Program-made: the position numbers and the translations under genes
Notes under the pieces: generated by a model
The model's database searches: none
What the model was told of the DNA's origin: nothing
What the model saw: the letters and a program-made list of their open reading frames with translations, nothing else
Shown here: positions 30,176 to 62,855 of the stretch, piece after piece
Numbering within the stretch: the first letter of the stretch is position 1
How the letters are laid out: each line of letters opens with the position of its first letter
From: Eubacteriales bacterium
Lineage (GTDB): Bacteria; Bacillota; Clostridia; Oscillospirales; CAG-272
DNA: 62,990 nt
NCBI GenBank assembly: GCA_050309735.1
Contig: JBNRMS010000030.1
Location: forward strand, 1 to 62,990
Direction of reading: 5' to 3'

Positions 30176-32620
30176 CTAATATCCCGCAATCCTGACAATC
30201 ACTACCGACAGGTCATCTTGGCTGCCATGGCTTCCGGCGCGGCCTATAATTTTATTTGCCATGCGCGAGAGATCGTCCTCCCATTCGTGGGATAGCAAAT
30301 CAGCCAACCAGCCTCCCTCTCTCCTCTGCTCAACCACGCCGCACGCGTCGGCAACGCCGTCGCTCACCATGACAATAATATCGCCCTCGCAAAGCTCAAG
30401 TCTTGTTATCTGCGCGTCAAGCGCGCTCAATATGCCGATAGGCACAGTTTGAGAGTGAAGACGAAAAATATCGCCCGAGCGGCGGATGTAGGTCGGCGCC
30501 GCCCCGCTTTTGATAAGCGACGCATCGCCACTGATAAGGTCAATCTCAAGGAGGTCAACCGTGGCCGAACATTCAATATCCCGCGCCCCGCCGCGCGAGC
30601 GGAGCACGCCGTTGAGCATACGCAGGGCGGTAGTAATCCTGTTTCCGGCCATAAGCATTTTTTCAAGAAAAAGAGAGCTGACACCCGAACTGAAAGCGGC
30701 GGCTCCTCCGGTTCCCATGCCGTCGCTGATAAGAGCGTAAAAGTAATCACGGCAAGTTTCAAACATAACCACGCTGTCGCCGCAAACCCCGTCGGGAGAG
30801 TCGGCAGCCGCGGCCGTCTGGCAGACCCGCTCGACAGAATAGCGGCGGCGGGTGCTCAGTGTCATTGCAAGGCGCCCCTCCTTTTTTTTGCTTGAAAATT
30901 CAAAGAGAGGATCCTCAAGCGCCGAACCGGTTACCTCCTCAAGGCTCCGGCGGAGCACATCAACATCACACCTCGCGCTCCGAGGCTCAATTCCCCGAGC
31001 CGAGATATATTTTCTCCTGCTCCCCCAAACATACAGCACCTCGGGCTCTATCCCGAGCCGACCGAGCGCTGCCGCCACCCTCTCCTCGATGGCGTCCGAG
31101 CGGTTGTATTCCTCGCGCTGCTCGGCAACGGCGTCGGCAAGAATGCGCGATATGGCGTCATAATCAAGCGCGAAGAGACTTATTTTTTCACTCCTGAATA
31201 CCGCCTCGGTGAGCGACGCGCACCCCGCGTTTATCTCCGCGATAATATCCTTAATGCTATTGCATCGCCTCTTTATCTGCTCTGGCACGCAGCCGACATC
31301 GGCTCGCCCCTTTTCGTGCAATTCGGCGCAGATCCTTGCCACCATGTCAAGCGAAGAACCATATTCAAGATTCCAGCAGATTTCCCGCCTGACACAGCCG
31401 GCGCAGGATTTATCAAAAATCCTGTCGCAGATGCGCCGAAGGTCGATTATTCCCGGCCTGCGAAGCCTGTCGCTTAGGTTATAGAAGACCTCGGAGAGCG
31501 CCGCGAAACTCTCGGAGACGGCGCTCAGCCTCTCCTCGTCTGATTTGATTCGGCTCTTTGCCCACTCGGCCTCGGCTCTAAAGACTTCTTCGCGCCCCAC
31601 CGCCGTCTCGGCGGCAGAGAGAGCATCGCCGATAAGTCCGGCTCGCTCGGCGCCGCAAAAGGCTGCGGCCGCAAGCAGAAGGGCGGGGAGAAGTCGGGTC
31701 AATGAGTCGATTCCATCTATATAAATTCCCCACATCATCCCCCCGGCAAAAGCAGCCGAGGCCGCAAGAGTGGGCGACAGACCGCAGAGCATTCCCTCGG
31801 CTATCGCGGCAAGGACAAAAAGAGGAGCGTAAACCGGGTCGCAGGCAATTCCCAGCACAAGGCCTGCCGAAGCACCGGCTAAAATTCCGTGGCGCCGGCA
31901 GATAAGCAGTGTCATAAAAAATGCTCCGAAAACGGCCGCCGATATCCCCATTATATTGATATCCCTTGCCGCATAGCATATTCCGGCCATAAGCGCCGCC
32001 CCTCCCGCAAGGTAGCACGCGTCAAACTTTGTCTTGCCCTCCTGCCCGCCGAGATATCCGGCAAACAACCACACAAAGGCAGGAGACGCAACAATGGCAA
32101 AAATCGCCCCAAAAAGATCGTAATAGCGATACCCGCCAACAATTATAGCATAAAGACTGATAATAAATGCAGAGACAGAGGCCGCCGTCATCCGCAGGCT
32201 CACACTCTCGTTAAACAAGCGCAGGCGCAGCGCCTTGAGCCGGGCGCCCGGCGGCGGGGCCGGCTCGTCCATGTCAGCGGTATCTATAAATATCCGGGTG
32301 ACAACCCGCAGCAGCAGGGCTATTATATATACACCTATGTAGACAGACGGATAGGGCGCGGCAGGATATGCCGAGGCGATAAGACCACCTAATATAAAAG
32401 GAATTTTCGCCCCCGAGGCACAAAGCAGCGCCACGCCGAGCGGATAGCTGCCAAAGAAAAGCCGGCAACTGCCGAGCAGATAGGCAACCCCCGCATATGC
32501 AAGTCCGCGTATCCCCTCGTCGACCAAAATCTTTCGGCTCACCCCAAAGAAAGAGAAATGCCTTCCCTCTCTCCCGCCGAACGCTTGTCCGCGCGGATTG
32601 TATTTTCTTTCTTCCTGCAT
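30176..32620 (-). CDS. spoIIE: Stage II sporulation protein E (membrane PP2C phosphatase)
   Basis: 814 aa. About 10 N-terminal TM helices, a central regulatory region, and a C-terminal PP2C domain (LISDGMGTGGAAAFSS, VMVSDGV). Confidence 0.9.
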   Translation of the reverse strand: MQEERKYNPRGQAFGGREGRHFSFFGVSRKILVDEGIRGLAYAGVAYLLGSCRLFFGSYPLGVALLCASGAKIPFILGGLIASAYPAAPYPSVYIGVYIIALLLRVVTRIFIDTADMDEPAPPPGARLKALRLRLFNESVSLRMTAASVSAFIISLYAIIVGGYRYYDLFGAIFAIVASPAFVWLFAGYLGGQEGKTKFDACYLAGGAALMAGICYAARDINIMGISAAVFGAFFMTLLICRRHGILAGASAGLVLGIACDPVYAPLFVLAAIAEGMLCGLSPTLAASAAFAGGMMWGIYIDGIDSLTRLLPALLLAAAAFCGAERAGLIGDALSAAETAVGREEVFRAEAEWAKSRIKSDEERLSAVSESFAALSEVFYNLSDRLRRPGIIDLRRICDRIFDKSCAGCVRREICWNLEYGSSLDMVARICAELHEKGRADVGCVPEQIKRRCNSIKDIIAEINAGCASLTEAVFRSEKISLFALDYDAISRILADAVAEQREEYNRSDAIEERVAAALGRLGIEPEVLYVWGSRRKYISARGIEPRSARCDVDVLRRSLEEVTGSALEDPLFEFSSKKKEGRLAMTLSTRRRYSVERVCQTAAAADSPDGVCGDSVVMFETCRDYFYALISDGMGTGGAAAFSSGVSSLFLEKMLMAGNRITTALRMLNGVLRSRGGARDIECSATVDLLEIDLISGDASLIKSGAAPTYIRRSGDIFRLHSQTVPIGILSALDAQITRLELCEGDIIVMVSDGVADACGVVEQRREGGWLADLLSHEWEDDLSRMANKIIGRAGSHGSQDDLSVVIVRIAGY

Positions 32621-34329: not shown

Positions 34330-34496
34330 ACTTTTACGCTCCTTTGAAGGTTTTCAATCTTTATTTTTGCCCTTCTTAGCCTGTTTATTCAGAAGCTGTA
34401 AAAATATATTAGAAATATTTCCTTAAAATATGACATTTGATGGGGGCGGTGGATATTTAATTTCATAGAAAATTATATTGTAAAATGTCGTTTTAA

Positions 34497-34602
34497 TGAT
34501 ATAATATGTACATTGGCAGGTTTCAGAGAAACCTGCAATGTCGCAAAGGTGAGGTAGGGCATGGGAGAGATTCACTTACGAATATGAATATACGCATTGG
34601 CA
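34497..34602 (+). repeat. Dispersed repeat family 1, copy B
   Basis: TGATATAAT (34497-34505), ATGTACATTGGCAG, hairpin 34516-34536 GCAGGTTTCagaGAAACCTGC, AATGTCGCAA, GGTGAGGTAGGGCATGGGAGAGATTCACTTACGAATATG, then a partial restart ATATACGCATTGGCA. Confidence 0.85.
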
Positions 34603-35506: not shown

Positions 35507-35525
35507 TTTATTTATTTATATAATA

Positions 35526-35630
35526 ACATAGTCGCAAGTGAATTTCTCCCATGTGTTTCTTCTCTTTTGCGACATCGCAGCTTTTTGCAAAAGCTGCCAA
35601 TGTGTATATTTAATAATAATGTGTATATTT
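35526..35630 (-). repeat. Dispersed repeat family 1, copy C (inverted relative to copy B)
   Basis: The reverse complement reads AAATATACACATTGGCAGCTTTTGCAAAAAGCTGCGATGTCGCAAAAGAGAAGAAACACATGGGAGAAATTCACTTGCGACTATG. The hairpin is at 35577-35597. The 5' AAATATACACATT segment is duplicated. Confidence 0.85.
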
Positions 35631-40091: not shown

Positions 40092-40158
40092 AGGAGACAG
40101 ACAAATCAGGTAGGATTCGGCGTTTAAACCGGAAGCAATCAAATAACTGTCGGCCTCG

Positions 40159-40185
40159 CATGGGAGAAATTCACTTGCGACTATG
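40159..40185 (+). repeat. Dispersed repeat family 1, copy D (3' half only)
   Basis: CATGGGAGAAATTCACTTGCGACTATG is identical to the 3' segment of copy C. It lies between convergent genes. Confidence 0.75.
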
Positions 40186-40196
40186 ATACTTCAGCT

Positions 40197-48103: not shown

Positions 48104-48160
48104 GTGCCTCTTGCGGCAGCAGCTTTCTGCGAGCGCTGCCAATGTACACATTATACCATA
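48104..48160 (-). repeat. Dispersed repeat family 1, copy E (5' half, divergent)
   Basis: The reverse complement is TATGGTATAATGTGTACATTGGCAGCGCTCGCAGAAAGCTGCTGCCGCAAGAGGCAC. The TGGTATAAT box at 48150-48158 faces proA. Confidence 0.7.
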
Positions 48161-51241: not shown

Positions 51242-52216
51242 ATGAATATAGCAATTGTAGGTTACGGTAATCTCGGACGCGGCGTTGAAGCTGCGGCAAA
51301 GAAAAATCCCGATATGAATCTTGTCGCTGTTTTTACCCGCAGGCCTCCCGAATCTCTTAAATTATCAACACCCGGTATACCGGTTCGCCCGCTCGCCGAC
51401 GCAAAAAAATACAAAAACGACATTGATGTTATGATAATCTGCGGAGGCAGCGCGTCCGACCTGCCCATAATCACCCCCGCGCTCGCAGAAGACTTTAATG
51501 TTGTCGACAGCTTTGACACGCACGCAAAAATCAACGAGCACTTCAGAAAAGTCGACGCGGCGGCTCTCTCGGGCAACCGCACGGCTATAATTTCAATCGG
51601 CTGGGATCCCGGACTTTTTTCGGTGAACAGACTATATATGTCCTCGGTGCTGCCCGACGGGCGCGACTATACCTTCTGGGGGCGCGGGGTCAGTCAGGGT
51701 CACTCAGACGCTATCCGCCGCATCGAGGGAGTGCTCGACGCGCGCCAATACACCGTTCCCTCGCCCGAGGCGATGAGGGCGGTGAGAGAAGGCAAAAACC
51801 CCGAACTCACAACCCGCCAGAAGCACACGCGCGAGTGTTTTGTCGCCGCGGCGCCCGGTGCAGACCTTGCAAAAATCGAGCAAGAAATCAAGACAATGCC
51901 TGATTATTTTGCCGATTATGACACGACGGTGACATTTATCAGCATGGACGAGATGAAGAAAAGCCACGCCTCCCTGCCCCACGGCGGCTCGGTTATCCGC
52001 TCGGGTACAACCTCTGACCGAGCAACGCATACTATGGAATTCAGCCTCTCGCTTGACTCAAATCCCGAATTCACCGCGAGCGTCCTCTGCGCCTTTGCGC
52101 GGGCGGCCTTTACGCTCTCGTCAAAGGGTGATTACGGCTGCAAAACAATTTTTGATATCCCCCCGGCTCTTCTCTCTTGCCGCCCGGCCGAAGAATTGCG
52201 CGCAACCATGCTTTAG
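51242..52216 (+). CDS. ddh: meso-Diaminopimelate D-dehydrogenase
   Basis: MNIAIVGYGNLGRGVE, GWDPGLFS, SQGHSDAIRRIEGV, MPDYF and PHGG align closely with Corynebacterium Ddh as I recall it. I prefer the ATG at 51242. Confidence 0.93.
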   Translation: MNIAIVGYGNLGRGVEAAAKKNPDMNLVAVFTRRPPESLKLSTPGIPVRPLADAKKYKNDIDVMIICGGSASDLPIITPALAEDFNVVDSFDTHAKINEHFRKVDAAALSGNRTAIISIGWDPGLFSVNRLYMSSVLPDGRDYTFWGRGVSQGHSDAIRRIEGVLDARQYTVPSPEAMRAVREGKNPELTTRQKHTRECFVAAAPGADLAKIEQEIKTMPDYFADYDTTVTFISMDEMKKSHASLPHGGSVIRSGTTSDRATHTMEFSLSLDSNPEFTASVLCAFARAAFTLSSKGDYGCKTIFDIPPALLSCRPAEELRATML

Positions 52217-52267
52217 CAATGAGGCTACCCGGCATTTTCACCCGTGCTAATACTATTACCTTATTAT

Positions 52268-52441
52268 AACATTGAACTTAACACCAGATTGCCTCACCCC
52301 GACCGCGGATAGGGACGTGGAGCCCGGCCGGGGTCGGCGCACCATGTTCTAAACTAAGCTGTGCCAAACGTTCCAAAAGCTTTTGAGGGGGGGGAAACTT
52401 TTTGAAAAAAGTTCCCCCGTTGCATCCCTCATTAGCTTAAT
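52268..52441 (-). repeat. Right copy of the inverted repeat pair, split by a 138-nt insert
   Basis: AACATTGAACTTAACACCAG (52268-52287) and CCCTCATTAGCTTAAT (52426-52441) are the reverse complements of the two adjacent arms at 44846-44883. Here they are separated by 52288-52425. Confidence 0.8.
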
Positions 52442-52466
52442 ATCTTAATTGGTATTTAGCTCCGGG

Positions 52467-52865
52467 TCAACAGCCATAAATATCGGTTATTTTCTCAATG
52501 GCGCCGGGGATGCCCGAGCAGATTGAGGACATGGCGTCGCAGTATCTGTCGTAGAGTTTCTCGGATAGCTCCTCGTTCTCGTCAAGGACGAGCATTGCCG
52601 CGATATAGAGCGAGGCAGGTTTTGCAAATCGCCTTGTAAGCGGAAAAACCGAGGCGAGTTCAATCATAACAGCGCTGTATGCAGGCTGCTTGTCAAGCGA
52701 GCCTGCGCTCCGGCAGAGGGTGTCGAGCGCCCCCGCCTCGGAGCAAAAAGCCGCAAGAAGATATGGGGCGCGTTCGGCATAGTCGCCGGTGCCCTCGTTC
52801 TCTCTCTCTCCGATAAGGGCAAGCGCGGCTTCGTATATCTCGGTGCAGATTATTTCATTTTCCAT
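52467..52865 (-). CDS. Phage-cassette small protein (possible head-completion/adaptor protein)
   Basis: 132-aa ORF immediately after the capsid-like gene, which is the position of head-completion genes in P22-like orders. I recognise no motif. Confidence 0.5.
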   Translation of the reverse strand: MENEIICTEIYEAALALIGERENEGTGDYAERAPYLLAAFCSEAGALDTLCRSAGSLDKQPAYSAVMIELASVFPLTRRFAKPASLYIAAMLVLDENEELSEKLYDRYCDAMSSICSGIPGAIEKITDIYGC

Positions 52866-52868
52866 GTT

Positions 52869-52919
52869 TTCTCCACGCCGCCCAGAGGCGGCTAATTAAA
52901 TTTTTGTAATTTTCGGCGG
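52869..52919 (-). repeat. Family 2 intergenic element, copy R1
   Basis: The minus strand reads CCGCCGAAAATTACAAAAATTTAATTAGCCGCCtctgGGCGGCGTGGAGAAAAC, then ATG of the 132-aa gene. Confidence 0.8.
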
Positions 52920-52958
52920 GGAGCCGGGGGCTCTGCCCCCGGACATCCTTTTTTTGAT

Positions 52959-53795
52959 TTACGACTCGGCAATGCCGAGATTGAGCAGCACCAACTCGTC
53001 AGAATAGACGATCTTTGCACCATATAAGTGCAGACCTTTAACGGCATCTGCAAAGCGCTTCTCGGGGCGATATGCGCTGATTTCGGAGAGCTGCTCGGCA
53101 AAGGCAATCGCGCGCTTTGTGCGTGCAAGGCACTTATAGTAGGTCACATCTGAAACCTCAGCCGAGGCGATATTATTCGACACGAATATCCTGCAGCCGC
53201 CGATGCTGCCGATGCATCCCTTCTCAAGCGCCTCGCGGTTGTCGGTTGAGAGATCCATTTTCGCCTTTAGAATCAGAGACGCTATTTGAGGTGAAACTTC
53301 GATTACAATGTCGTCGGCGTCCGACACGTTTTTGGTGAAAAGCGTGGTGCGCGCGTCGATTATATGACCGATAACATTGCTTGTGGTGGTCGCATCCTCT
53401 GTTATGGTGGTGCCGGCGTCCGAGTAGAGCGAGTAGACATAGGTGTCGGCGGTGTTGGCAAGAGCGTTTGCCGCTATCCTCATCGCCTCGTTCATCAGCT
53501 TGGGAGTGCATTGGGCGCGGTCGATGTCGTCAATCTGGAAATTGAAGGCCTTTGCCTGATCAATAAGCAGACTGCGTGTGCTGTCCGAGAGGGCCTGAGG
53601 GGCGGTCATGTCGGTGTCCTTGGTGTAGTCAAAAACATTGACGGCACCTACGCCGACAATATTAACCACCGAACCCTTTTCCTTGATGTCGCCCTCGAAG
53701 TCGCGGTTGCAGTGCTTGACCGCGATATACTTCTTGTCGAGCTGTGTGTAGAGGTTTTCGCTCCAGACTGTGGGAATAAAATTTGAAATAGCCAT
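52959..53795 (-). CDS. Phage major capsid protein-like (HK97-fold family suspected)
   Basis: 278 aa. The N-terminus MAISNFIPTVWSENLYTQLDKKYIAVKHCNRDFEGDIKEKGSVVNIV matches the pattern I associate with short Firmicute-phage coat proteins annotated as P22-coat/gp5-like. It follows a scaffold-like gene. Confidence 0.65.
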   Translation of the reverse strand: MAISNFIPTVWSENLYTQLDKKYIAVKHCNRDFEGDIKEKGSVVNIVGVGAVNVFDYTKDTDMTAPQALSDSTRSLLIDQAKAFNFQIDDIDRAQCTPKLMNEAMRIAANALANTADTYVYSLYSDAGTTITEDATTTSNVIGHIIDARTTLFTKNVSDADDIVIEVSPQIASLILKAKMDLSTDNREALEKGCIGSIGGCRIFVSNNIASAEVSDVTYYKCLARTKRAIAFAEQLSEISAYRPEKRFADAVKGLHLYGAKIVYSDELVLLNLGIAES

Positions 53796-53816
53796 GATTT
53801 TTCTTCCTTTCTTTAT

Positions 53817-54368
53817 TTAGCTCCATGATTTCATGGAGTCTATTATCTTTGTGTAATTTTCTCTTACCTCCGAGGCGCTCATTGAGCGAACCTCGTTCGG
53901 CGTGAAAAACCCCGTCTTCCCCCGGCCGTCAAGACATCCCGAGGAATTCTCGCTGTTCTTTACGTTTATTTCGGCGGCTCTCTTGCGGCGCGCCCTGTCA
54001 TAGGCATAGGCCGCCGCCAGGGGCACGCCGCTCCTCACCGACTCCCAGACCTCACCCGGCAGCGAACCGAGCTCCTCTCCCGGAAAAACCTCGGTGAATT
54101 CGGCAATCTCGCGCGACATTCGCTCGAAATATCGATTCTGCTCATCAAGCCGAGAGCGCAGGCCTTCAAGCTCGGCGCGAAGAATCGCGAGCTCATCGGC
54201 GGGATCTGCGGGGGTTTGGGATTGGGCAGGATTCCCATTATCTGTTCCGGCCTCGTCCCCAGCCTCGGGTTCGTCCTCTGTTCCACCCTCGTCCTCGACC
54301 TCGGGCGATTTATCGTCGGTTGGTAAATCCTCAAGGAGCAACTCATCTTCTCTTATTTCGATTGGCAT
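53817..54368 (-). CDS. Phage scaffolding protein-like
   Basis: 183 aa. Very acidic N-terminus (EDEGGTEDEPEAGDEAGTD) and a coiled segment LAILRAELEGLRSRLDEQNRYFERM. It is located between the portal and capsid genes. Confidence 0.6.
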   Translation of the reverse strand: MPIEIREDELLLEDLPTDDKSPEVEDEGGTEDEPEAGDEAGTDNGNPAQSQTPADPADELAILRAELEGLRSRLDEQNRYFERMSREIAEFTEVFPGEELGSLPGEVWESVRSGVPLAAAYAYDRARRKRAAEINVKNSENSSGCLDGRGKTGFFTPNEVRSMSASEVRENYTKIIDSMKSWS

Positions 54369-54372
54369 TTCC

Positions 54373-55941
54373 TCACCCTCCTCGCTCAGACATTTTCTTT
54401 TGCCTTATCTCTTCAAGCAGTGCGTCGCGATCGGTAAGCACTCCGGCAGGCAGCCTTTCTATGTACTGCTCGGGGGTTATATGCCCGCCGTCAAGCAGGC
54501 GGTTGAGCATACTAAGCGTGCCCGCTGCGCCGTAACGCGAGATTTCGCCGACATCGACCCGCGCCCTTATCAGAGCACCTCTCAGACTGCTAAGGTCAAC
54601 GCGCTCGGCGCGCTCCTCGCCCCCCTCGACGAAGGGTACGAGGCGTTGGTCGGGATAATAAGCGCACATCATATCGGCCCATATATTCGCAAGATCCTCT
54701 ATGCACTGAAAGTAACTCCGGCGAACCTGCTCGAGCGGGATTCTTGCCGCCTCCTGAAGTGCGAGTATCGCGCTGGTATTTGTTGCCTCGCCGTCTCCGA
54801 GAGCGCTCTCTGTCGCCCCCATCATCTCTTTGGTCATTCGCGCGGCAAGCTCTATGAGTTCGAGATATCCCTCCTGCATCTGCCCTACGCCAACGACCGA
54901 CACGGCGTCTGAAACGTTTGTTCCGCCGAGCGCAGCTATCGCCTCCCCCACCCCGTTTGTCCACTCGGGAATGCGCGACTTGTCGTAGATTACCTTCGAG
55001 AAGGCAGTGTCGGTCATATGCTTCATAACCATCGCAAAGGCGCGATTGATAAACTTTTGATTCGGAATCATCCCGCTTATCGGCGAGGTTCCGTGAAAAC
55101 TGTTCTTGGTCGGAAACCAGTTGAAATAGGCTACCGGATATAAGGTCAGGTCGGTTCTCTGCCGGCGAATCACCGCGCCCTGCACAGACTTTTCGAAACA
55201 GACCTTCCCGTCCTCGCGCCAGAATTTTATTAAGCATGTTGCCTTCCTTTCGCTATAGTGCTCGTCGATACTCCCGAGTTCATATCTGGCCATATCTCCC
55301 GATTGATTATCCCCGCCGTCATCGGGCTGGATTTTCTTTATCATCTCGGCAGAAGCGCCATATTTTCTTGCCTCCTCGCAGAGCGCCTCAACCCTCTCAC
55401 GCCCCGAAATTATGATATAATCCTGAGACTGGATGTCCGCGCGATTAACGTCGGCGACAAAAAGGTTCACATTGTCGATAACCTCGGTTGCGATGTCGCC
55501 GGTAAAGTCGCGTCCGGCCGAGGCCGACGGATCCCACCAGCAAAAGAGCACTCCGTCTCCGCTTATCGCGGCGTCGGTCAGGAGCGAATAGAGCTTTCGG
55601 TCAAGTTTCGCACGTTCCCAGCGGTAGGCGGCATTTCTTGTCATCGCACCGACCGCCCGCCCTATCGCCGCTGCAGCCGCCGGGTCTCTGACAAAGGGCA
55701 GATTTTCGTCGTTGTACGAGAGCGAGATGTCACCCGAGAAAACAGTGCAGACAAGATAGTCGATAATTCGGCGGATTATGTTGAAGACGGGTTTGGGGAG
55801 ATCGGTGTTTTCGGCTCCGTACCACTGATTTCCGCGGTAGAATCGCTCGTTCTGTCGCACCGTCTCAAAAAGCCCGATTCTGCGCTTGTATTCAAGCCCC
55901 TCCTCATACTGCCGCCATGCTTTAGTTTTGAATTTTTTCAT
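54373..55941 (-). CDS. Phage portal protein-like
   Basis: 522 aa. The N-terminus KAWRQYEEGLEYKRRIGLFETVRQNERFYRGNQW is a pattern I associate with portal proteins. Its size and its position before the scaffold gene fit. Confidence 0.65.
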   Translation of the reverse strand: MKKFKTKAWRQYEEGLEYKRRIGLFETVRQNERFYRGNQWYGAENTDLPKPVFNIIRRIIDYLVCTVFSGDISLSYNDENLPFVRDPAAAAAIGRAVGAMTRNAAYRWERAKLDRKLYSLLTDAAISGDGVLFCWWDPSASAGRDFTGDIATEVIDNVNLFVADVNRADIQSQDYIIISGRERVEALCEEARKYGASAEMIKKIQPDDGGDNQSGDMARYELGSIDEHYSERKATCLIKFWREDGKVCFEKSVQGAVIRRQRTDLTLYPVAYFNWFPTKNSFHGTSPISGMIPNQKFINRAFAMVMKHMTDTAFSKVIYDKSRIPEWTNGVGEAIAALGGTNVSDAVSVVGVGQMQEGYLELIELAARMTKEMMGATESALGDGEATNTSAILALQEAARIPLEQVRRSYFQCIEDLANIWADMMCAYYPDQRLVPFVEGGEERAERVDLSSLRGALIRARVDVGEISRYGAAGTLSMLNRLLDGGHITPEQYIERLPAGVLTDRDALLEEIRQKKMSERGG

Positions 55942-55944
55942 TTA

Positions 55945-55996
55945 TCCCCCATGCCGCCCGAAGGGCGGCTAATTAGATTTTGGAATTTTCGGCGGC
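55945..55996 (-). repeat. Family 2 intergenic element, copy R2
   Basis: The minus strand reads GCCGCCGAAAATTCCAAAATCTAATTAGCCGCCcttcgGGCGGCATGGGGGATAA, then ATG of the portal gene. Confidence 0.85.
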
Positions 55997-56088
55997 TTTG
56001 CCGCAAAAGTGGGGCAGGGTCCCACTTTTAGAAAATTCGTGTGTGAAACAGCAAGACTCAAAATTTATGAATGTAATGCTTTCACACG

Positions 56089-56140
56089 ATCCCCCATGCC
56101 GCCATCGGCGGCTTATATAATTTTGAATTTTTCGGCAGCC
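56089..56140 (-). repeat. Family 2 intergenic element, copy R3 (no gene directly downstream)
   Basis: The minus strand reads CTGCCGAAAAATTCAAAATTATATAAGCCGCCgatGGCGGCATGGGGGATC. It begins 6 nt after the stop of the 580-aa gene. Confidence 0.8.
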
Positions 56141-56145
56141 GCTCC

Positions 56146-57885
56146 TTATTTGCTTGCCGTCAGCGCAAGTCCGAATATCCGCTGGCGGCCCTCCCCGCGC
56201 GCCGATATGCGATAGCCGACATAATCAAGCCTGCCGGTCGACACCCGCGCCTCATGGCAGCCGATTTGATCTTGGGTCGAAAAGTGACTTTTGGTCAGCT
56301 CGCCAAAGCTTATCTCGGCACGATTGCCCGACGGGTCGCGAAGGCTCACCGATATTCCGCTCCCCGTTGCCGTCATGCGTATTCGTTTAACTCTTTTCCG
56401 GCTGCCCGGGAGGCTCATATCGCTATATCCGCTCGTATAATCAGCGACAATTTCGCAGCCATCGTCAAGATACTCATTCTCGCCGAAAAGGTATATGCCC
56501 GAGGCCGCCGAGAAACCGGCCTTGTCGCCGTAGGTAAAATAAATCTCGCCCGGTATTTGGGTGAAGCAATACCACTTGTTTATCCGCCAGTTGTAGACAA
56601 ACACCCTCCCCCCGGGGTCGGTCGGATTGCCAATCCAGATTTCGTTTTTCTCGCGGAAATTGTGTATTACCGAGTTTGAGCGGAAATCAAAGTCGATGAG
56701 GTCGCACAGCGGCGCCGAGATATCAACCGCGCTGCTCTCGTCTCTCTGGTCGGTGTTGTCGGTCCAGCGGTAGATTCCGCCCCGACTGACCGTCACCGGA
56801 TCATTATCACAGAGCACCACCCCGCCAAGGCAGCCCACTCCCGAGTTTATCGGGCGGACCGGCGTGTCCTGATAGGAATTCTCCGAGAGGTCTGTCATTC
56901 TTGCGTCGTCTGCGGTAAATAGAAGTAGCCTGTCATAGTGCCGGCAGACCGAGGTAACCTCAGCGCCCCCGGCAGCGACAAGGAAATCATAACCGACCGG
57001 AAAATAGAGCGCCCCCGAGTCGGGGATGACCGCCCGCGAGGCTTCAACATCAGGACCGCTGACATACTTTGACCTGAACACCCTTGATTTGTCGAGCCCG
57101 CCAAAGCAAAATACGCTTGTGTCATATTTCCCACCGTAAACCGCCGCGCCGACAGAGGACGCGAGCGTCGACCGCAGTGTATATGAGGTTCCGATATCAA
57201 GACAGACCTCGATCACGCTGCCCATTGAAGCCGTCGAGCCCAGATTCAGCGTTGTGCCAATGAGGCTGTATCCGCTCGTTTTTGGAACTCCGTTGATAAT
57301 GAGGCTCTCGACAGCTTCAGCCGCAATGCCGGTTGAGATATTTGCGGTCGATGTCGTTGTGAGCTTGTAGGTTATCCTGATGTAGCGCGACAATTGGTTT
57401 AAGGGCTCATTAATCTCTCCCCCGCTGTGAAGCCAATCGCGCCCGTAGAGCGGAACATATCCGCTAACCGGCCAAACTCCGGCACGGGTGCAGCGATAAA
57501 CATCTCCTCCGTCGATAAGGTAAAGCCTGTCTTCAAGGAGGAAAAAGCAGGCTGTGCCCGACTGTGTGCCAACGCCCCCTATCGGGGTGCTTGCCGCTTC
57601 TTCGGGATCGGTCAGATAAACGGTGTCTCCCGCCAACACGACAAGCGATGGTGCGCCCTCAAGCTCTCCCGACCACAGGGCGCGAACCTTTTGCGGGAGG
57701 TCGAGCGCGCGATAGTATCCGCAGCGCTTCTCAAGCGAGCCGTCGGGAAGTATCCTGAAGTTTCTGATATTCTCGGCCACACTCCCGTCACCGATAGGGC
57801 TTGTGCGGTCGATTCCGCCGAAGGAGCTGACCAAAAAAGAGGCCGCCGCACTCCCGGGTTTGTTTTTAATTTTAATATTTGCCAT
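56146..57885 (-). CDS. Large beta-rich phage-cassette protein of unknown role (virion structural protein suspected)
   Basis: The ORF is 56146-57942 (TTG). I prefer the ATG at 57885 (MANIKIKNKPG), with GAAAGG upstream. It is Gly/Ser/Thr/Val/Tyr-rich with short strand-like repeats (FRILPDGSLEKRCGY, LYLIDGGDVY, GGIYRWTD). I recognise no enzymatic motif. Confidence 0.6.
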   Translation of the reverse strand: MANIKIKNKPGSAAASFLVSSFGGIDRTSPIGDGSVAENIRNFRILPDGSLEKRCGYYRALDLPQKVRALWSGELEGAPSLVVLAGDTVYLTDPEEAASTPIGGVGTQSGTACFFLLEDRLYLIDGGDVYRCTRAGVWPVSGYVPLYGRDWLHSGGEINEPLNQLSRYIRITYKLTTTSTANISTGIAAEAVESLIINGVPKTSGYSLIGTTLNLGSTASMGSVIEVCLDIGTSYTLRSTLASSVGAAVYGGKYDTSVFCFGGLDKSRVFRSKYVSGPDVEASRAVIPDSGALYFPVGYDFLVAAGGAEVTSVCRHYDRLLLFTADDARMTDLSENSYQDTPVRPINSGVGCLGGVVLCDNDPVTVSRGGIYRWTDNTDQRDESSAVDISAPLCDLIDFDFRSNSVIHNFREKNEIWIGNPTDPGGRVFVYNWRINKWYCFTQIPGEIYFTYGDKAGFSAASGIYLFGENEYLDDGCEIVADYTSGYSDMSLPGSRKRVKRIRMTATGSGISVSLRDPSGNRAEISFGELTKSHFSTQDQIGCHEARVSTGRLDYVGYRISARGEGRQRIFGLALTASK

Positions 57886-57945
57886 ATAGAACCATGCCTT
57901 TCTGTCACCGCAGGCCTGCGGGACGGTAGGGTACAGGCACAATCA

Positions 57946-59370
57946 TCAGATATCGTAGATGCTTGTCGCGCGTCTGAAGGTAAAATGCTCGCTCGGCTCG
58001 GGCGGCTGCGCCCGGCTCATGACAGCATAGCGCAGCGCCTCGGGCGCGTGGGTCAATGCGTGGGGTTCGCCGGCCGCATCCTCGGGTCGGTCGGGATTGC
58101 AGAGCAGCGATTGCATTGAATTAATGAGGTTCGTACAGGGGTATGAGATTCGCAGCGCCGGGCGGCAGAGCTCGCCGCTCGGCGAGGCCTCGGACGCTGA
58201 TATCGCGCCGGCGAGATACTCGCGCACCTGCCGCCAGCCCGGGATTCTGCGATTGTCTGCCGGGCGCATGGGAGGCATACCTGCCACCGCCTGCATCACC
58301 TCGGCGCCGCTTTTGCCGCTGTCCTGCCTTCTGTTCCAGAGGTCGGGCGAGGCAACGACATATTCGGCATATTCGCCGCCCATCATGCGCACAACCCGCT
58401 CAGCCGCCTCGCTTAAGGTCAGTCCCGGAGCTGAAATCTCTCGGATAACCCACAAGTTCGAGGATGCGTCAACCCCGAGGAGCAGCGCCGCCAACATATC
58501 AAAGCCATAGTCCAGTGCAACAAAGCGCCTTATGTTATTTGGGATAACAGCCGCCGGTGCGGTTTCCCTGCCTCGGGACCCCGCGCCGAATACATGAACA
58601 GACTCGTCAAATTCAGCAAAAAACTGCCCCTCGAAAATGTCCCACCTGCCATGCAGCCAGGCATCTCTAAGGCGGGCGGGCAGCGACTCCAGCTGCCGCT
58701 CATACTCGGGGTCGGCGCGCCGCAGCGCCTCGTTGTCATAAACTCTGGCAGGGATAAAGGCGTAATCCTCGGGATGCTCGCCCGGATGATATCTCCGGTC
58801 GATAAAGAGCCGCTTGACCCACGCGTGTCCGATTCCGCCGGGGTTACAGGTCAGGTAGATACGGCGGGGATAATCCCCGACGCCGCGGAGCGAGGCCTTA
58901 ATTAATGAGTACTGATATTCGCTCAGTTGCGTTGCCTCGTCGATGGCGATAATGTCGTATTCCTGCCCCTGATAGCGCAGGGCGTCCCGGTCGCATGAGC
59001 AGTAGCCAAGGTCTATTGTGCTGTCGCCGGGGACAATCAGCCTTTTTTCGCCCTCGCGATACTCAAGAAGAGCCTGATATTCGCGCAGCATGGGGAGCAC
59101 ATGATTGGTTTTCAGCTCGGGATACGAACGGCGCACAAGCAGGCAGTGTATTCCGGGATAGCGCAGACAAAGCCCAATAAGCTTGCGCCGCAGCGCCCAA
59201 GACTTCCCCCCGCCCCTCGCTCCGCCGTATGCGGTATAGCGCGCTCTTGATTCAAAGAAAAGCCGCTGTTTTTCATTCGGCACCCCCGAAATCAGTAGCA
59301 CCCCGCTCCTTTTCTCCCCCGAACTCTTGTGAGCCATATCAAATCCCTTCCTGTCCTTAATGCCATGCAA
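57946..59370 (-). CDS. Phage terminase large subunit
   Basis: 474 aa. Walker A YGGARGGGKSW, Walker B/coupling YDIIAIDEAT, and a C-terminal nuclease-sized domain. Confidence 0.85.
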   Translation of the reverse strand: MHGIKDRKGFDMAHKSSGEKRSGVLLISGVPNEKQRLFFESRARYTAYGGARGGGKSWALRRKLIGLCLRYPGIHCLLVRRSYPELKTNHVLPMLREYQALLEYREGEKRLIVPGDSTIDLGYCSCDRDALRYQGQEYDIIAIDEATQLSEYQYSLIKASLRGVGDYPRRIYLTCNPGGIGHAWVKRLFIDRRYHPGEHPEDYAFIPARVYDNEALRRADPEYERQLESLPARLRDAWLHGRWDIFEGQFFAEFDESVHVFGAGSRGRETAPAAVIPNNIRRFVALDYGFDMLAALLLGVDASSNLWVIREISAPGLTLSEAAERVVRMMGGEYAEYVVASPDLWNRRQDSGKSGAEVMQAVAGMPPMRPADNRRIPGWRQVREYLAGAISASEASPSGELCRPALRISYPCTNLINSMQSLLCNPDRPEDAAGEPHALTHAPEALRYAVMSRAQPPEPSEHFTFRRATSIYDI

Positions 59371-59390
59371 TTCCCGGCTCTTAGCGTTTT

Positions 59391-59891
59391 CTACTCGCCA
59401 TCGGCCATAATGTCGTGTTCAAACACGAGCCTCAGCTCGCCCGCGTCGCCCTCGGTTTTTTTGTCCGACCGAGCCTCGGAGTATCCGAGCCGAATTTTGA
59501 GATAGGCACCGATCAGGGTCGGAGCGATTTCAGAGTTGAGCGCCTCGTCCTCGAAGGCGGCCGAGATGCACCCTGTCTCCTCGGGATAAAGCTCGGTTAG
59601 TTCCAGATATTTTCTCGCGCTGATGCCAAGATAGCGGCAGAAACCCGCAATATTCGGAAAGCGCCCGCTCTCCCCCTTTTCGCCTCGCTTGCCTGATTTT
59701 CGCTCGCTGCCGGCCTTTTCCGGTATGCCGCCCTCGACCCTCGCTTTCTCGCCCCTGCCCTGACTATCGCACATAGCAAAACCCTTTCGGCAGTCAATAA
59801 TATACTGCTGTGCAAGAAGAAAAAGGTCGGCTCCCGAATACTTGCTCTCAAGCTTGTCTCTCCCCTTCTCTCCCCTTTTCTTATCCTCCAT
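59391..59891 (-). CDS. Phage terminase small subunit-like
   Basis: 166 aa. FPNIAGFCRYLGISARKYLEL resembles the HTH segment of small terminases. It lies immediately upstream of the large terminase gene. The N-terminal half is low-complexity and Lys/Gly/Glu-rich. Confidence 0.6.
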   Translation of the reverse strand: MEDKKRGEKGRDKLESKYSGADLFLLAQQYIIDCRKGFAMCDSQGRGEKARVEGGIPEKAGSERKSGKRGEKGESGRFPNIAGFCRYLGISARKYLELTELYPEETGCISAAFEDEALNSEIAPTLIGAYLKIRLGYSEARSDKKTEGDAGELRLVFEHDIMADGE

Positions 59892-60000
59892 TCATATCAA
59901 CACCTCCCTTGTTTGCCTGTACCGCCATGAGTATATAAAAAAAAAGAGTGCCACAGGATGTCATCCCGTGACGCTCAGTGCCAAGATTTAAAAATAACAC

Positions 60001-60038
60001 AAAAAATCAAAAAAGGGGGCTCGCTCAAGAAGCCCCCA
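60001..60038 (-). terminator. Intrinsic terminator of the Mrp-family gene
   Basis: The minus strand reads GGGGGCT-tcttgagcg-AGCCCCC followed by TTTTTGATTTTTT. Confidence 0.85.
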
Positions 60039-60078
60039 ATATTTGATTTATAAATTTATAAGGCAATATAAACGCTTT

Positions 60079-60909
60079 TCAATTGAATTTTGGAACAATC
60101 TCCGAGACAAGCCCATCAAGCCAATCGCCGTCAAACAACTCTATCATGCCTCTGTCGCAGGCTCCGGCAAGCTTTTGATTGATGGGAATCTTGGCAACAT
60201 TCGCCACACCGTGTTTTTTCGCAATTTCATCAATTTGGCTCTCGCCATAAATTTTGTGCCGCTCCCCGCACTTCCCGCAATCAAAATACGACATATTTTC
60301 CACAATGCCAAGCACCGGTATTTTCATCATCTCGGCCATTTTCACCGCCTTCTCTACTATCATCGACACCAATTCCTGCGGCGAGGTGACCACAATAATC
60401 CCGTCAACGGGTATGGATTGAAATATAGTCAGCGGAACGTCACCCGTTCCGGGCGGGCAGTCGATAAGCATCAGATCAACGCCGCTCCAGACCACGTCCG
60501 ACCAAAACTGTTTGACCGTTCCCGCAATCACAGGGCCACGCCAGACCACAGGGTCGGTGTCGTCGGGCAGAAGCAGGTTTATAGACATGGCGGCAATGCC
60601 GGTTTTGGTCATCACCGGAAAGATTCCCCGCTCGTCGCCCACCGCCTTTTCCCTGATTCCGAATATCCTCGGAATTGAGGGCCCGGTGATGTCGGCGTCA
60701 AGTATCGCGGTTTCAAAGCCCTCGCGCCGGGCGAGGACGGCAAGCATCGAGGTCACAAGTGATTTGCCCACTCCCCCCTTGCCGCTCACCACGGCAATAA
60801 CCTTCTTTACTTCCGAATACCGATTAGCCGGTGCAAGAAGGCTCTCGGTTTTGCGGTCGGAACAGCTTTGTCCGCATTTGCTGCAATCGTGTGTGCATTG
60901 GTCGCTCAT
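60079..60909 (-). CDS. Mrp/NBP35-family iron-sulfur cluster carrier ATPase
   Basis: 276 aa. N-terminal Cys cluster CTHDCSKCGQSC, deviant Walker A SGKGGVGKS, and CPPGTGD. Confidence 0.9.
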   Translation of the reverse strand: MSDQCTHDCSKCGQSCSDRKTESLLAPANRYSEVKKVIAVVSGKGGVGKSLVTSMLAVLARREGFETAILDADITGPSIPRIFGIREKAVGDERGIFPVMTKTGIAAMSINLLLPDDTDPVVWRGPVIAGTVKQFWSDVVWSGVDLMLIDCPPGTGDVPLTIFQSIPVDGIIVVTSPQELVSMIVEKAVKMAEMMKIPVLGIVENMSYFDCGKCGERHKIYGESQIDEIAKKHGVANVAKIPINQKLAGACDRGMIELFDGDWLDGLVSEIVPKFN

Positions 60910-61766: not shown

Positions 61767-62702
61767 CTATAACCTGATTCCTTTTACCCGTATAAATTCT
61801 TCAACTTCGGCGGCGGTCGGCAAAGATGAATAGGCCCCCGCCCGACTAACCGTCAGCGCACCGGCTATATTGCCAAGTCTACCTGCTCGCTCAACATCGC
61901 CCGAGCTCAGATATTCGAGAGTGAAGGCGGCGGTGAAGGCGTCTCCGGCAGCGGTGGTGTCGACCGCCTTAACATCATAAGCCGGAACGCAATGATAATA
62001 AAGTCCGTCATAAATATAAGCGCCCCGCCCGCCAAGTTTAATAACATAATAATGTGCATTGACTATCTTGGAAAGTGCAATGGCAGCCCTCAGGCAATTT
62101 TCGGGCGAATTTGGCGAGATTCCGGTGAAAATCTCGGTTTCGGTTTCATTTGGCGAAAAGACCTCAAGGTGAGGCAGCCTCGCAAGCGGAAAATATCGGC
62201 TGGCCGGACCCGCGTCTATGAAAATAGGTATATTCTTTTTGGCAGCGGCATTTGCCGCGTAAATAACAGCCTCCGGATCTATCTCAAACTGCATAAAAAG
62301 AGCATCGGGATAGGAGATAAGCGCGTGGTCGATGTCGTCGGCCGTCATTTCCATATTGGCACCGGGATAGACGACAATGCGATTGACGCCGTTGTCCTCA
62401 ACCATAATCGCGGCAAGTCCTGTGGGAGCTTTTTTATCGTGAACTATAAAACGGGTGTCGATTCCTTCTTTTTCATAAAGGTTCTTGAGTATCGCTCCGT
62501 TAGCATCGCTGCCGACACGAGTGCAGAATATGCATTCTCCCCCAAGTCTCTGGATTGCCACAGCCGAATTAGCTCCCTTCCCGCCCGGCACAAAACGGTA
62601 TGAACCGCCGTCTATCACCGTCTGCCCCGCCGACGGAAGGGCGTGCATATTCATAACGAAATCCATATTGGCCGAACTAACCACAAGAATTCTCTTTTTC
62701 AT
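61767..62702 (-). CDS. rbsK: Ribokinase (PfkB family)
   Basis: Contains GGKGANSA and DTTAAGDAF. I prefer the ATG at 62702 (MKKRILVVSS), after GGGGG. In-frame upstream ATGs exist at 62714 and 62753. Confidence 0.75.
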   Translation of the reverse strand: MKKRILVVSSANMDFVMNMHALPSAGQTVIDGGSYRFVPGGKGANSAVAIQRLGGECIFCTRVGSDANGAILKNLYEKEGIDTRFIVHDKKAPTGLAAIMVEDNGVNRIVVYPGANMEMTADDIDHALISYPDALFMQFEIDPEAVIYAANAAAKKNIPIFIDAGPASRYFPLARLPHLEVFSPNETETEIFTGISPNSPENCLRAAIALSKIVNAHYYVIKLGGRGAYIYDGLYYHCVPAYDVKAVDTTAAGDAFTAAFTLEYLSSGDVERAGRLGNIAGALTVSRAGAYSSLPTAAEVEEFIRVKGIRL

Positions 62703-62714
62703 AATAACCCCCAT

Positions 62715-62729
62715 GCCGCCAATGGCGGC
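62715..62729 (-). promoter_or_regulatory. GC hairpin plus SD leader module (family 2 core, copy R4)
   Basis: The minus strand reads GCCGCC-att-GGCGGC, then ATGGGGG, then TTATT and ATG of the ribokinase gene. A TATAAT box lies about 15 nt upstream of the hairpin. Confidence 0.6.
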
Positions 62730-62855
62730 TCGACATCGATTCTTATTATACACAATTATATCTTAAAACCCACGGCAAATCAAGAATTGCGATGGATTTT
62801 TTGAAAAATGGGTAAAAAGTAGTCACAAAAAGCAAAAATTATTTTAAAAAAACCC

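Follow-up and report, generated by a model that had tools for sequence, protein, structure and literature searches.

A conserved seven-gene podovirus-type cassette in mostly uncultured Clostridia is a candidate core of a gene transfer agent-like particle with a phage-type late promoter

A 2026 report found packaging of host DNA into particles resembling gene transfer agents (GTAs) to be widespread among the Ruminococcaceae and Oscillospiraceae of the gut, and a preprint of the same year describes GTA-like signals in Oscillospiraceae without candidate genes. According to the report on the Faecalibacterium prausnitzii agent (FpGTA; Nat Commun 2026, PMC12946183), the source of all statements on FpGTA made here, a gene cluster responsible for such gut packaging is known only in Faecalibacterium, and GTA-like packaging of 4-10 kb occurs in several uncultured gut Clostridia without a known cluster (Supplementary Data 1 of that report). 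Operon I of FpGTA (10.5 kb, ten open reading frames (ORFs)) encodes, in particular, a small terminase (TerS) without an evident DNA-binding domain, a large terminase (TerL), a portal, a major capsid protein (MCP) of the N4-gp56 family, an adaptor and a P22-gp10-like nozzle, and a second operon of 5.5 kb encodes baseplate, fiber, receptor-binding, holin and endolysin proteins; the particles are 40 nm in size, look tail-less and contain 8.4-8.9 kb of host DNA. The present analysis concerns a seven-gene cassette in the 62,990 nucleotide contig JBNRMS010000030.1 (assembly GCA_050309735.1) of a Eubacteriales bacterium from the CAG-272 group of Oscillospirales, the entire stretch being hereafter the window. 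This cassette is read here, with a probability of about 0.6, as the structural core of a podovirus-type GTA-like particle that would be expressed from an Ltr-type phage late promoter, with the activator supplied in trans.

The cassette consists of seven uninterrupted ORFs (g1-g7; Table 1), all on the minus strand, which span 7.4 kb (positions 52467-59891) in the order TerS-TerL-nozzle-portal-scaffold-MCP-g7. The intergenic gaps, from g1 to g7, are 20, 3, 204, 4, 21 and 93 nt, with the second gap extending to 60 nt if g3 starts at the ATG at 57885, the start favored by the homologs. An earlier note on this DNA, made from the letters without database searches, had already described seven co-directional open frames that are tightly spaced apart from one 204-nt spacer, and its calls of small terminase, large terminase, portal and capsid are borne out by the profile searches detailed below. 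The order that it considered P22-like is not strictly so: the nozzle gene of the cassette lies between those for TerL and the portal, whereas P22 has TerS-TerL-portal-scaffold-coat-adaptor-nozzle, the coat gene preceding those for the adaptor and the nozzle.

Both FpGTA and the cassette are chromosomal, non-replicating clusters of gut members of Oscillospirales that combine TerS, TerL, portal, scaffold, MCP, an adaptor (putative in the cassette) and P22-gp10-like nozzle, have no long tail and leave the fiber and lysis genes outside the core operon. The differences are several. FpGTA has the P22 order TerS-TerL-portal-(Prp-like)-MCP-x-adaptor-nozzle, as deduced from accession numbers, as opposed to the cassette, where the nozzle gene stands between those for TerL and the portal; the MCP of FpGTA belongs to the N4-gp56 family, whereas that of the cassette belongs to Phage_capsid_4/phrog_267; the TerS of FpGTA reportedly lacks a DNA-binding domain, whereas that of the cassette belongs to the GP3_package family and contains a helix-turn-helix (HTH); the operator array that precedes the cassette goes unmentioned in the available FpGTA description; and the particles and the packaged DNA of FpGTA have been demonstrated, whereas the cassette is known from its genes. 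Thus, the cassette is closest to FpGTA yet differently organized, and represents a second podovirus-type GTA-like candidate, found in at least 46 species. No description of the seven-gene cassette or of its operator was found in the literature.

Table 1. Cassette genes and associated elements, with positions in the window
Feature	Position	Strand	Assignment	dN/dS
g1	59391..59891	-	small terminase, P22 gp3 family	0.09-0.34
g2	57946..59370	-	large terminase, ATPase + nuclease	0.04-0.15
g3	56146..57885	-	podovirus-type tail nozzle, T7 gp12 / P22 gp10 fold, ~580 aa	
g4	54373..55941	-	portal, P22/SU10 type, 522 aa	0.04-0.14
g5	53817..54368	-	scaffold-like: acidic N-terminus, coiled coil	0.06-0.39
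g6	52959..53795	-	major capsid protein, HK97 fold, Phage_capsid_4 / phrog_267	0.05-0.31
g7	52467..52865	-	132-aa all-helical protein, putative head-to-tail adaptor	
Operator array	59948..59983	-	hexamers TGGCAC, CGTCAC, TGACAT, TGGCAC; exact 10-bp period; 36 bp	
-10 box	59930..59935	-	TATACT; 18 nt from start of fourth hexamer; no recognizable -35	
Spacer g3-g4	55942..56145	-	204 nt, two copies of host-type intergenic element (55934-55995, 56080-56113)	
GC-rich hairpin	52924..52942	-	CCGGGGGCAGAGCCCCCGG; just 3' of MCP stop	
Hairpin between convergent g7 and ddh	52389..52418	-	GGGGGAAC-TTTTTTCAAAAA-GTTTCCCCC	

The assignment of g3 comes from structure prediction, given that this protein has no Pfam match. 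Its 81 homologs, all 550-615 aa long, are encoded in metagenome-assembled genomes of Clostridia, and the AlphaFold (AF2) model obtained from 55 homologs has a predicted local distance difference test score (pLDDT) of 91.2 and a predicted template modeling score (pTM) of 0.88. When this model was compared with the PDB using Foldseek, the first 32 matches were all to nozzle or muzzle chains of podovirus or crAss tails, including those of Pa223, SU10, cyanophage A4, T7 gp12 and P22 gp10 (E=1.5e-22 to 3e-11, template modeling (TM) scores of 0.40-0.68). Because these top 32 matches include only nozzles and muzzles, the g3 protein is identified by its modeled fold as a tail nozzle, as the earlier note had surmised for this 580-aa protein. 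In sequence, g3 is 24% identical to the virion protein Page_15 of Bacillus phage Page.

The g7 protein is homologous to the product of the ORF located directly 5' of the nozzle gene in all related clusters with a non-canonical gene order (L049/L051/L072/L093-type, with loci denoted by L numbers; see below), as well as to Page_12, which is encoded in the tail module of the Bacillus podophage Page. The ORF in the equivalent position is called an adaptor by the authors of the FpGTA report (PMC12946183). A profile search of g7 against PDB sequences produced no match, the hhalign comparison with P22 gp4 was not significant (Prob 0.26), and the single-sequence AF2 model is unreliable (pLDDT 50). Because the homologs of g7 adjoin nozzle genes and the FpGTA authors named this position accordingly, g7 is denoted a putative head-to-tail adaptor; the adaptor role suggested for this protein in the earlier note is supported by the position upstream of the nozzle gene and by homology.

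Among the packaging genes, g1 taken alone shows a weak match to GP3_package in Pfam (E=0.018), and 27 of the 35 members of its family match this domain (PF16677), with the best E=7.8e-10. The protein consists of an N-terminal helix, a Lys/Glu-rich linker, an HTH (FPNIAGFCRYLGIS) and a conserved C-terminus with the motif FEHDI..DGE; in the family alignment, the small-terminase HTH reads FPNxAGFCRYxGI. By these sequence features, g1 is a P22-gp3-type small terminase with a classic HTH; its ribosome-binding site (RBS), AGGGAGGTG, is located 9 nt 5' of the ATG. The g2 protein matches Terminase_6N (E=6e-12) and phrog_979 (E=7e-41), and its ATPase motifs (Walker A GGARGGGKSW, Walker B DIIAIDEAT and CNPGG) and nuclease motifs (LDYGFD, ASPDLW and HAPEALRY) are conserved across 43 species, with the Walker A, Walker B and nuclease motifs invariant among the 43 homologs.

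Of the head proteins, the portal g4 matches P22_portal (E=1.7e-13) and phrog_156 (E=2e-29), has homologs in more than 120 clusters at 60-95% identity and shows about 30% identity to Pagevirus portals. The g5 gene is located between the portal and MCP genes at all loci and its product shows a weak match to Page_5 (E=0.002), suggesting that it is a scaffold. The g6 protein matches Phage_capsid_4 (E=2e-9) and phrog_267 (E=4e-50), has no match to TIGR04387 and shares 38-44% identity with its counterparts in phages AP45, D6E and phiCP26F, with the 44% observed for AP45 and D6E. NCBIfam provides no names for g1, g3, g5, g6 and g7. There is no head protease gene in the cassette, which fits P22-type assembly because the scaffold of P22 leaves the procapsid intact.

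When one genome from each GTDB species was searched using an alignment of 14 nozzle sequences as the query, 65 loci were recovered. In 46 of these, each a GTDB species representative, the canonical order g1-g2-g3-g4-g5-g6-g7 is preserved; all seven genes are present in 35 canonical loci, and the remaining 11 are incomplete due to contig ends or runs of N (L040). Hence the cassette is represented in at least 46 species, mostly uncultured Clostridia. The gene lengths are almost constant across the canonical loci, and the median identity between pairs of homologs reaches 65% in TerL, 59% in the MCP and 56% in the portal compared with 32% in the nozzle, the fastest evolving gene of the cassette. 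The seven genes diverge in a positively correlated manner (rho up to 0.82). Across ten of the most closely related species pairs, with dS values of 0.10-3.6, some of these at or near synonymous saturation, dN/dS ranges from 0.04 to 0.39 for every gene. The cassette genes are under purifying selection.

The genes flanking the cassette in the relatives are housekeeping genes that vary by lineage and are partly syntenic, with a phosphopantetheinyl transferase at 17 loci, HPr kinase at 10 and PrsA at 8; there is no recurring phage-like family in these flanks, and no integrase, replication, fiber or lysis genes within 10 kb of the cassette. The identity between portals correlates with the identity between the neighboring housekeeping genes (rho of 0.43-0.95), which argues for vertical co-divergence of the cassette and its neighbors. 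The cassette is conserved, behaves like a domesticated unit and is not a recent deletion remnant. Among the traits of GTAs, it displays those of a chromosomal phage-derived cluster of structural and packaging genes that is conserved and vertically inherited across species and that is not accompanied by genes for integration, excision or replication, either across the window or within 10 kb of the cassette in the relatives; what would mark a prophage, namely modules for lysogeny, replication, tail and lysis, is absent, and the genes are not decaying.

In being a vertically inherited, phage-derived cluster of head and packaging genes under purifying selection, the cassette resembles RcGTA of Rhodobacter capsulatus and the other alphaproteobacterial GTAs, which also lack integration and replication genes and have their accessory loci and activator unlinked. 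RcGTA differs in that it resembles a siphovirus, its main 15-kb cluster including the tail genes, and has an HK97-type prohead protease, in having a TerS without a DNA-binding domain, and in coming from a different phylum, with no sequence relationship to the cassette.

The surroundings of the cassette in the window conform to this pattern. It abuts ddh (DAPDH_C, E=2e-74) on one side and mrp (NUBPL-type ParA, E=5e-85) on the other, the latter upstream of g1. All 44 large ORFs (at least 150 aa) that were searched against Pfam outside the cassette proved to be housekeeping genes or had no Pfam match; the former include FolD, Lgt, M16 peptidases, TadA, FeoB, ABC transporters and a sulfatase, as well as SpoIIE, an M23 peptidase, proA/proC and dapA/dapB. 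None of these ORFs was recognized as an integrase, repressor, replication, tail, holin or endolysin gene, and the window likewise yielded no genes for fibers, receptor binding or ejection. The GC content of the cassette, both overall and at third codon positions (GC3), is like that of the neighboring host genes, and there are no att-like repeats flanking it.

Thus, the ddh and mrp flanks and the dearth of phage genes elsewhere in the 63 kb were correctly perceived in the earlier note, and its view that the cassette represents neither prophage decay nor a live prophage holds, given that the frames are intact, dN/dS is 0.04-0.39 and the prophage modules are absent. The comparisons that it proposed, of the conservation of the cassette as a unit and of dN/dS, yielded an identical set and order of the seven genes in 46 species and the values given above. 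It also named observations that would speak against it, none of which was made: in the 46 species examined, the canonical family was never found within a contiguous complete prophage, no ORF is truncated and the TerL motifs are invariant in 43 homologs, and no tail, lysis or integrase genes were found beyond the borders. The domesticated GTA-like machine and the minimal podovirus-like particle, which were listed there as separate possibilities, are both supported and turn out to be one and the same.

The remaining, non-canonical loci encode nozzle homologs with 25-29% identity and show other gene arrangements. In the L049/L072/L093 type, the genes follow P22 (TerS-TerL-portal-scaffold-MCP-adaptor-nozzle) and are succeeded by genes for a fiber-like protein, an amidase endolysin and a holin. 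This cluster (L093 and L092-L104, L072, L049) is highly conserved in Oscillospiraceae, the nozzles of more than 120 clusters showing 64-75% identity; the L093 version is that of Flavonifractor plautii, and its exact proteins are found on at least 1000 contigs. The cluster may itself be a GTA or a ubiquitous prophage. Because L093 belongs to F. plautii, this look-alike was rejected as a candidate for FpGTA itself. The L051 type (L051, L054, L056, L061) has the order portal-adaptor-nozzle-scaffold-MCP-fiber-endolysin, with no terminase gene within 8 kb upstream, which suggests split loci in another lineage. The fiber, lysis and accessory proteins of the non-canonical clusters have no homologs in the window or in the canonical loci, and the canonical cassette is thus the pared-down representative of a broader set of podovirus-type clusters found in Oscillospirales.

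Even the closest isolated phages are only distantly related, with 24-31% identity for the nozzle and portal and 44% for the MCP. For the portal, the nozzle (Page_15) and g7 (Page_12), these are the pageviruses of Bacillus megaterium (Page, Pony and Palmer). The cassette shares with them and with P22 the assembly logic of the P22 type, including portal, scaffold, coat, adaptor and nozzle in the absence of a protease, whereas these phages are complete viruses of 40 kb that possess about 20 structural genes, among them those for tailspike, fibers and ejection proteins, along with holins and endolysin. A further small cluster, L073, is an unannotated virome entry in GenBank (MT836592.1, 9588 bp, 'Bacteriophage sp.', human feces) with the order TerS-TerL-portal-scaffold-MCP-123aa-203aa-642aa; its MCP and portal are 37% and 28% identical, respectively, to those in the window, and it may be a fragment of a small podovirus-like genome or a packaged GTA-like cluster.

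Upstream of g1, the alignment of the canonical loci reveals a common layout that consists of four TGnnAC hexamers with an exact 10-bp period, 12 nt, a -10 box (TAnAAT; TATACT in the window), about 7 nt, GCACAG, the RBS and the ATG, with no usable -35 element. The fixed register of 18 nt, measured from the start of the fourth hexamer to the -10 box, can be seen in the aligned regions, and manual counting bore it out in seven loci (L011, L014, L018, L032, L033, L039 and the window), and the same register is found in the phage late promoters of L239, L204 and L288. The hexamer variant is uniform within each locus and varies by lineage (TGGCAC, TGAGAC, TGGTAC, TGGGAC or TGTCAC). Arrays with a score of at least 12 out of 16 precede g1 in 40 of 42 canonical loci, and in the 1.59 Mb of loci searched, those scoring at least 14 are located only upstream of g1, with the exception of a partial duplicate in L045. 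The window contains exactly one copy. The second, partial copy of the operator and promoter in L045 (~3520-3559, minus strand) is separated from the downstream cassette by 4.4 kb, adjoins a tRNA-Gln gene, has no obvious gene after it and is probably a remnant of duplication.

Several other interpretations of the array were considered and discarded. A sigma-54 promoter, suggested by TGGCAC, is incompatible with the lack of TTGC at N5 and with the TGAGAC, TGGTAC and TGGGAC of other lineages. A Spo0A box or a standard -35 element is ruled out by sequence and spacing, the TTGACA-like match in the fourth repeat leaving a 13-nt spacer. A terminator-like site at 59972-59950 was dropped as a separate element, being part of the operator array, although it folds as a hairpin here: hexamers 2-4 (59936-59990, minus strand) form a 10-bp stem followed by T9 (-18.8 kcal/mol, z=-3.7). 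This terminator-like hairpin, located just downstream of the mrp terminator, is limited to the window and its closest relatives (L007-L010), with the complementarity missing in the other clades.

Pattern scans of public collections show that TGGCAC and TGAGAC arrays recur in phage contigs of IMG/VR, most matches in the metagenome scan being to unrelated 10-bp satellites. At 62 of the 205 matched IMG/VR loci, members of a single protein family are encoded on the same strand as the array, which is located from -40 to +80 nt relative to the 3' end of their gene. In L239, the member of this family shows similarity to Sigma70_r4_2 (E=4e-4) and DUF1492 (E=0.015), and the gene and the array are followed by terS (Terminase_2), terL and a gene for an SPP1-type portal; L288 is organized analogously. 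The portals of the array-carrying phages, of the SPP1 type and Phage_portal_3, are unrelated to that of the cassette.

In phages of Gram-positive bacteria, activators of the Ltr superfamily (RinA, ArpU, LtrA/Sigma70_r4, LtrB/DUF1492 and LtrC) are encoded just upstream of terS, and two to four direct repeats immediately distal to ltr are necessary and sufficient for specific binding of the activator; the families do not cross-react, and reporters bearing the repeats are active only upon prophage induction (PMC3753634). The cassette has the same combination of short direct repeats upstream of terS with an operon that starts with terminase genes, terS-terL-portal in the case of the phages (PMC3753634). 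By comparison of these sequences, the array is likely to be the binding site of an Ltr-type (sigma-70 region 4/DUF1492-like) late activator. The cassette differs from the phages, which have ltr immediately upstream and an operon running into tail and lysis genes, in that its operon ends after seven genes and ltr is absent from the window and the 46 related loci; in a search with the hidden Markov model of the family, no activator homolog was detected in the window or in any canonical locus. Because the array is present and the activator gene is missing from the window and the canonical loci, the cassette appears to carry a late promoter with an activator site that would have to be served in trans.

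Under the GTA-like interpretation, the seven genes would be transcribed as a single late operon, as the conserved promoter architecture suggests, from a promoter made up of the -10 box and the four activator-binding hexamers at -60 to -25. The activator would be an Ltr-type late regulator encoded elsewhere, either by a domesticated chromosomal gene or by a resident or infecting phage with the same specificity. Judging from family membership, the MCP, scaffold and portal would build the procapsid, and TerS and TerL, the latter with its conserved catalytic motifs, would load dsDNA by a headful mechanism, after which g7 and g3, with its predicted nozzle fold, would dock on the portal and seal it, yielding a stub-tailed particle. 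Receptor binding, DNA ejection and lysis would then come from a second locus, comparable to operon II of FpGTA, or from a helper phage. If so, the seven proteins would constitute a minimal, tractable part list for a sealed, DNA-filled capsid, and the 36-bp operator would provide a regulatory handle, the cognate activator being searchable in the carrier genomes and their phages.

Several points weigh against this interpretation. Neither an activator gene nor a second locus with fiber and lysis genes was found across the window or within 10 kb of the cassette in the relatives; the adaptor role of g7 is proposed on the basis of position and distant homology; the GTA-like particle is deduced from the genes alone; and FpGTA was compared with the cassette by gene order and family descriptions only. 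Furthermore, TerS keeps its HTH, unlike the account given for FpGTA, so that packaging may be site-specific rather than random. Finally, the TGAGAC array (four to six repeats) together with TATAAT is also found in switch-like regions of phages (L116 2112-2147, L117, L125 7351-7386 on the minus strand, L130, L162, L165 and L327 10285), which is a misfit to the simple late-promoter model. There, the array is flanked on one side by a divergently oriented gene whose product is an Xre-HTH coiled-coil protein (155-167 aa) and on the other by a conserved ORF of 51 aa (M..NEKELINIIRNS.EPEKV...); encoded downstream are Xre regulators, a helicase, a DNA polymerase or a C5 methyltransferase, so that in some phages the array appears to serve a second, early-looking promoter.

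A possible, although less probable, alternative has the same part list but a different controller and beneficiary: the late activator of an infecting or induced phage would fire the cassette in the late phase of this helper, and the cassette would make its own small capsids and use the lysis system, and perhaps the fibers, of the helper, either spreading host DNA or lowering the burst by competing for or cutting DNA. Put differently, and with the same tentativeness, the cassette would be an orphan late operon that is immobile and vertically inherited, is fired by a phage activator, forms its own nozzle-sealed capsids and exits via phage lysis; to our knowledge, it would be the smallest particle kit derived from a tailed phage. 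This scenario draws on the identity of the operator classes of the cassette (TGGCAC and TGAGAC) with those found beside activator genes in IMG/VR phage contigs, and on the specificity of Ltr proteins for the cognate repeats, with repeat reporters firing only on prophage induction (PMC3753634). Moreover, what the cassette lacks, namely activator, lysis and fibers, is exactly what a helper would give, and the hexamer variant shifts in concert between lineages, as would be expected if it tracked local phages.

Conversely, for the cassette to have been inherited vertically over a long time in 46 species, compatible phages would have to be present throughout, no helper was identified in any carrier genome, and the unrelated portals of the array-carrying phages make sharing of fibers not obvious. 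The dependence on a trans-acting activator does not discriminate here, given that GTAs, too, use unlinked activators of phage origin, such as GafA of RcGTA. If the cassette is such an orphan operon, it could function as a phage-triggered gene transfer agent and/or an anti-phage decoy and could explain the 4-10 kb packaging reported for several uncultured gut Clostridia in which no cluster is known (PMC12946183); domesticated phage operons wired to phage late activators would then blur the boundary between GTAs, satellites and defense.

It appears improbable that the array is instead a pac site bound by the HTH-bearing TerS, such that the first headful starting from 59983 would carry the 7.6-kb cassette itself, which would spread as a minimal virus-like element and enter recipients by homologous recombination. 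To be sure, TerS retains the P22-gp3-type HTH, the pac site of P22 is located within gene 3, the repeats on one helix face near terS resemble the TerS-binding boxes of SPP1, and the distance of about 7.6 kb from the array to the terminator is near the headful of 8.4-8.9 kb of FpGTA. However, the exact register between the array and the -10 box, in the seven hand-counted loci and in the phage late promoters, is a requirement of a promoter rather than of a pac site, and in phages the array stands beside Ltr-type genes, including phages with a Terminase_2 TerS. Covariation with the hexamer class, which is no greater for TerS (top normalized mutual information of 0.51) than for the other six proteins (0.54-0.62), lends no support to the pac reading, and IMG/VR contains four canonical contigs only, none with terminal repeats.

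Even less likely is a satellite of the kind of capsid-forming phage-inducible chromosomal islands (cf-PICIs), which would excise, replicate and borrow helper tails. Similarly to cf-PICIs, the cassette is chromosomal, specifies capsid and packaging proteins of its own, lacks long-tail genes and would depend on a factor in trans; unlike in cf-PICIs, which have an integrase, regulatory and replication modules, att sites and helper tails, no integrase, excisionase, primase or replicase and no att repeats were found in the window or the 46 relatives. Additionally, a cassette that encodes its own nozzle needs no siphovirus or myovirus tail, and it co-diverges with the neighboring genes. Of the helper-dependent satellite proposed in the earlier note, the dependence in trans survives, in the form of an operator without an activator gene, but the rest is not supported as proposed. 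A functionless, still intact prophage remnant, compatible with the local picture of phage genes between housekeeping genes, is hardly credible given that all seven genes are intact in every complete locus of the 46 species, with dN/dS far below 1 for all genes and with conserved catalytic motifs and promoter architecture.

The 204-nt spacer between g3 and g4 is a lineage-specific insertion because the median gap between these genes in other species is 15 nt. The host-type element contained in it consists of CCGCCGAAAAWT.CAAAAT.., a GCCGCC-loop-GGCGGC hairpin and ATGGGGG (as the RBS) just 5' of the start codon; additional copies are located at 52858-52919 and 62697-62730, all on the minus strand (repeat families D4 and D5), so that the element precedes g7, the portal gene (with the extra copy in the spacer) and the ribokinase gene rbsK. 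It looks like a host module comprising a 5'-untranslated region hairpin and RBS, or a small mobile repeat, and is probably the 'family 2 intergenic element' of the earlier note; its occurrence in two intergenic spaces of the cassette is a sign of long residence. The GC-rich hairpin after the MCP gene is possibly a partial terminator or an mRNA stabilizer that tunes MCP stoichiometry; a stem-loop or terminator is annotated at the equivalent place in P22 and Page. The hairpin between g7 and ddh, which has no T-run and was missed by a simple terminator scan, is likely to mark the end of the operon.

An Rfam search over 52000-60200 gave nothing credible. A weak match to CRISPR-DR29 (58152-58195, plus strand; 26 bits compared with the gathering score of 39, E=0.031) falls within the TerL coding region and is most likely due to chance. 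Carriers of the cassette are spore-formers, as indicated by SpoIIE (30176-32620) in the window; in L005 (15193-16798), spoIIGA and sigE follow the cassette on the same strand, and in L040 (10418-11817), the cassette adjoins recX-recA, but the proximity of sporulation genes and recA is probably coincidental.

Two further repeats were observed in the window. An inverted pair of 35 nt (44864-44898/52253-52287, 91% complementary, CTGGTGTTAAGTTCAATGTTTTAATGAGGCAATAG) is located at the 3' ends of convergent gene pairs, with one copy between ddh and g7; Rfam has no match around the copy at 52253-52287. The second repeat family comprises a promoter-like CTATGGTATAATAT, a CAGGTTTC..GAAACCTG hairpin and then ATGTCGCAA, with at least five intergenic copies, some of them in tandem (2107-2159, 2195-2247, 34494-34546, and, inverted, 35517-35610 and 48119-48159), and with associated parts at 2171-2202, 34558-34589 and 40157-40188; it may be a shared promoter with a leader, or an element resembling miniature inverted-repeat transposable elements.

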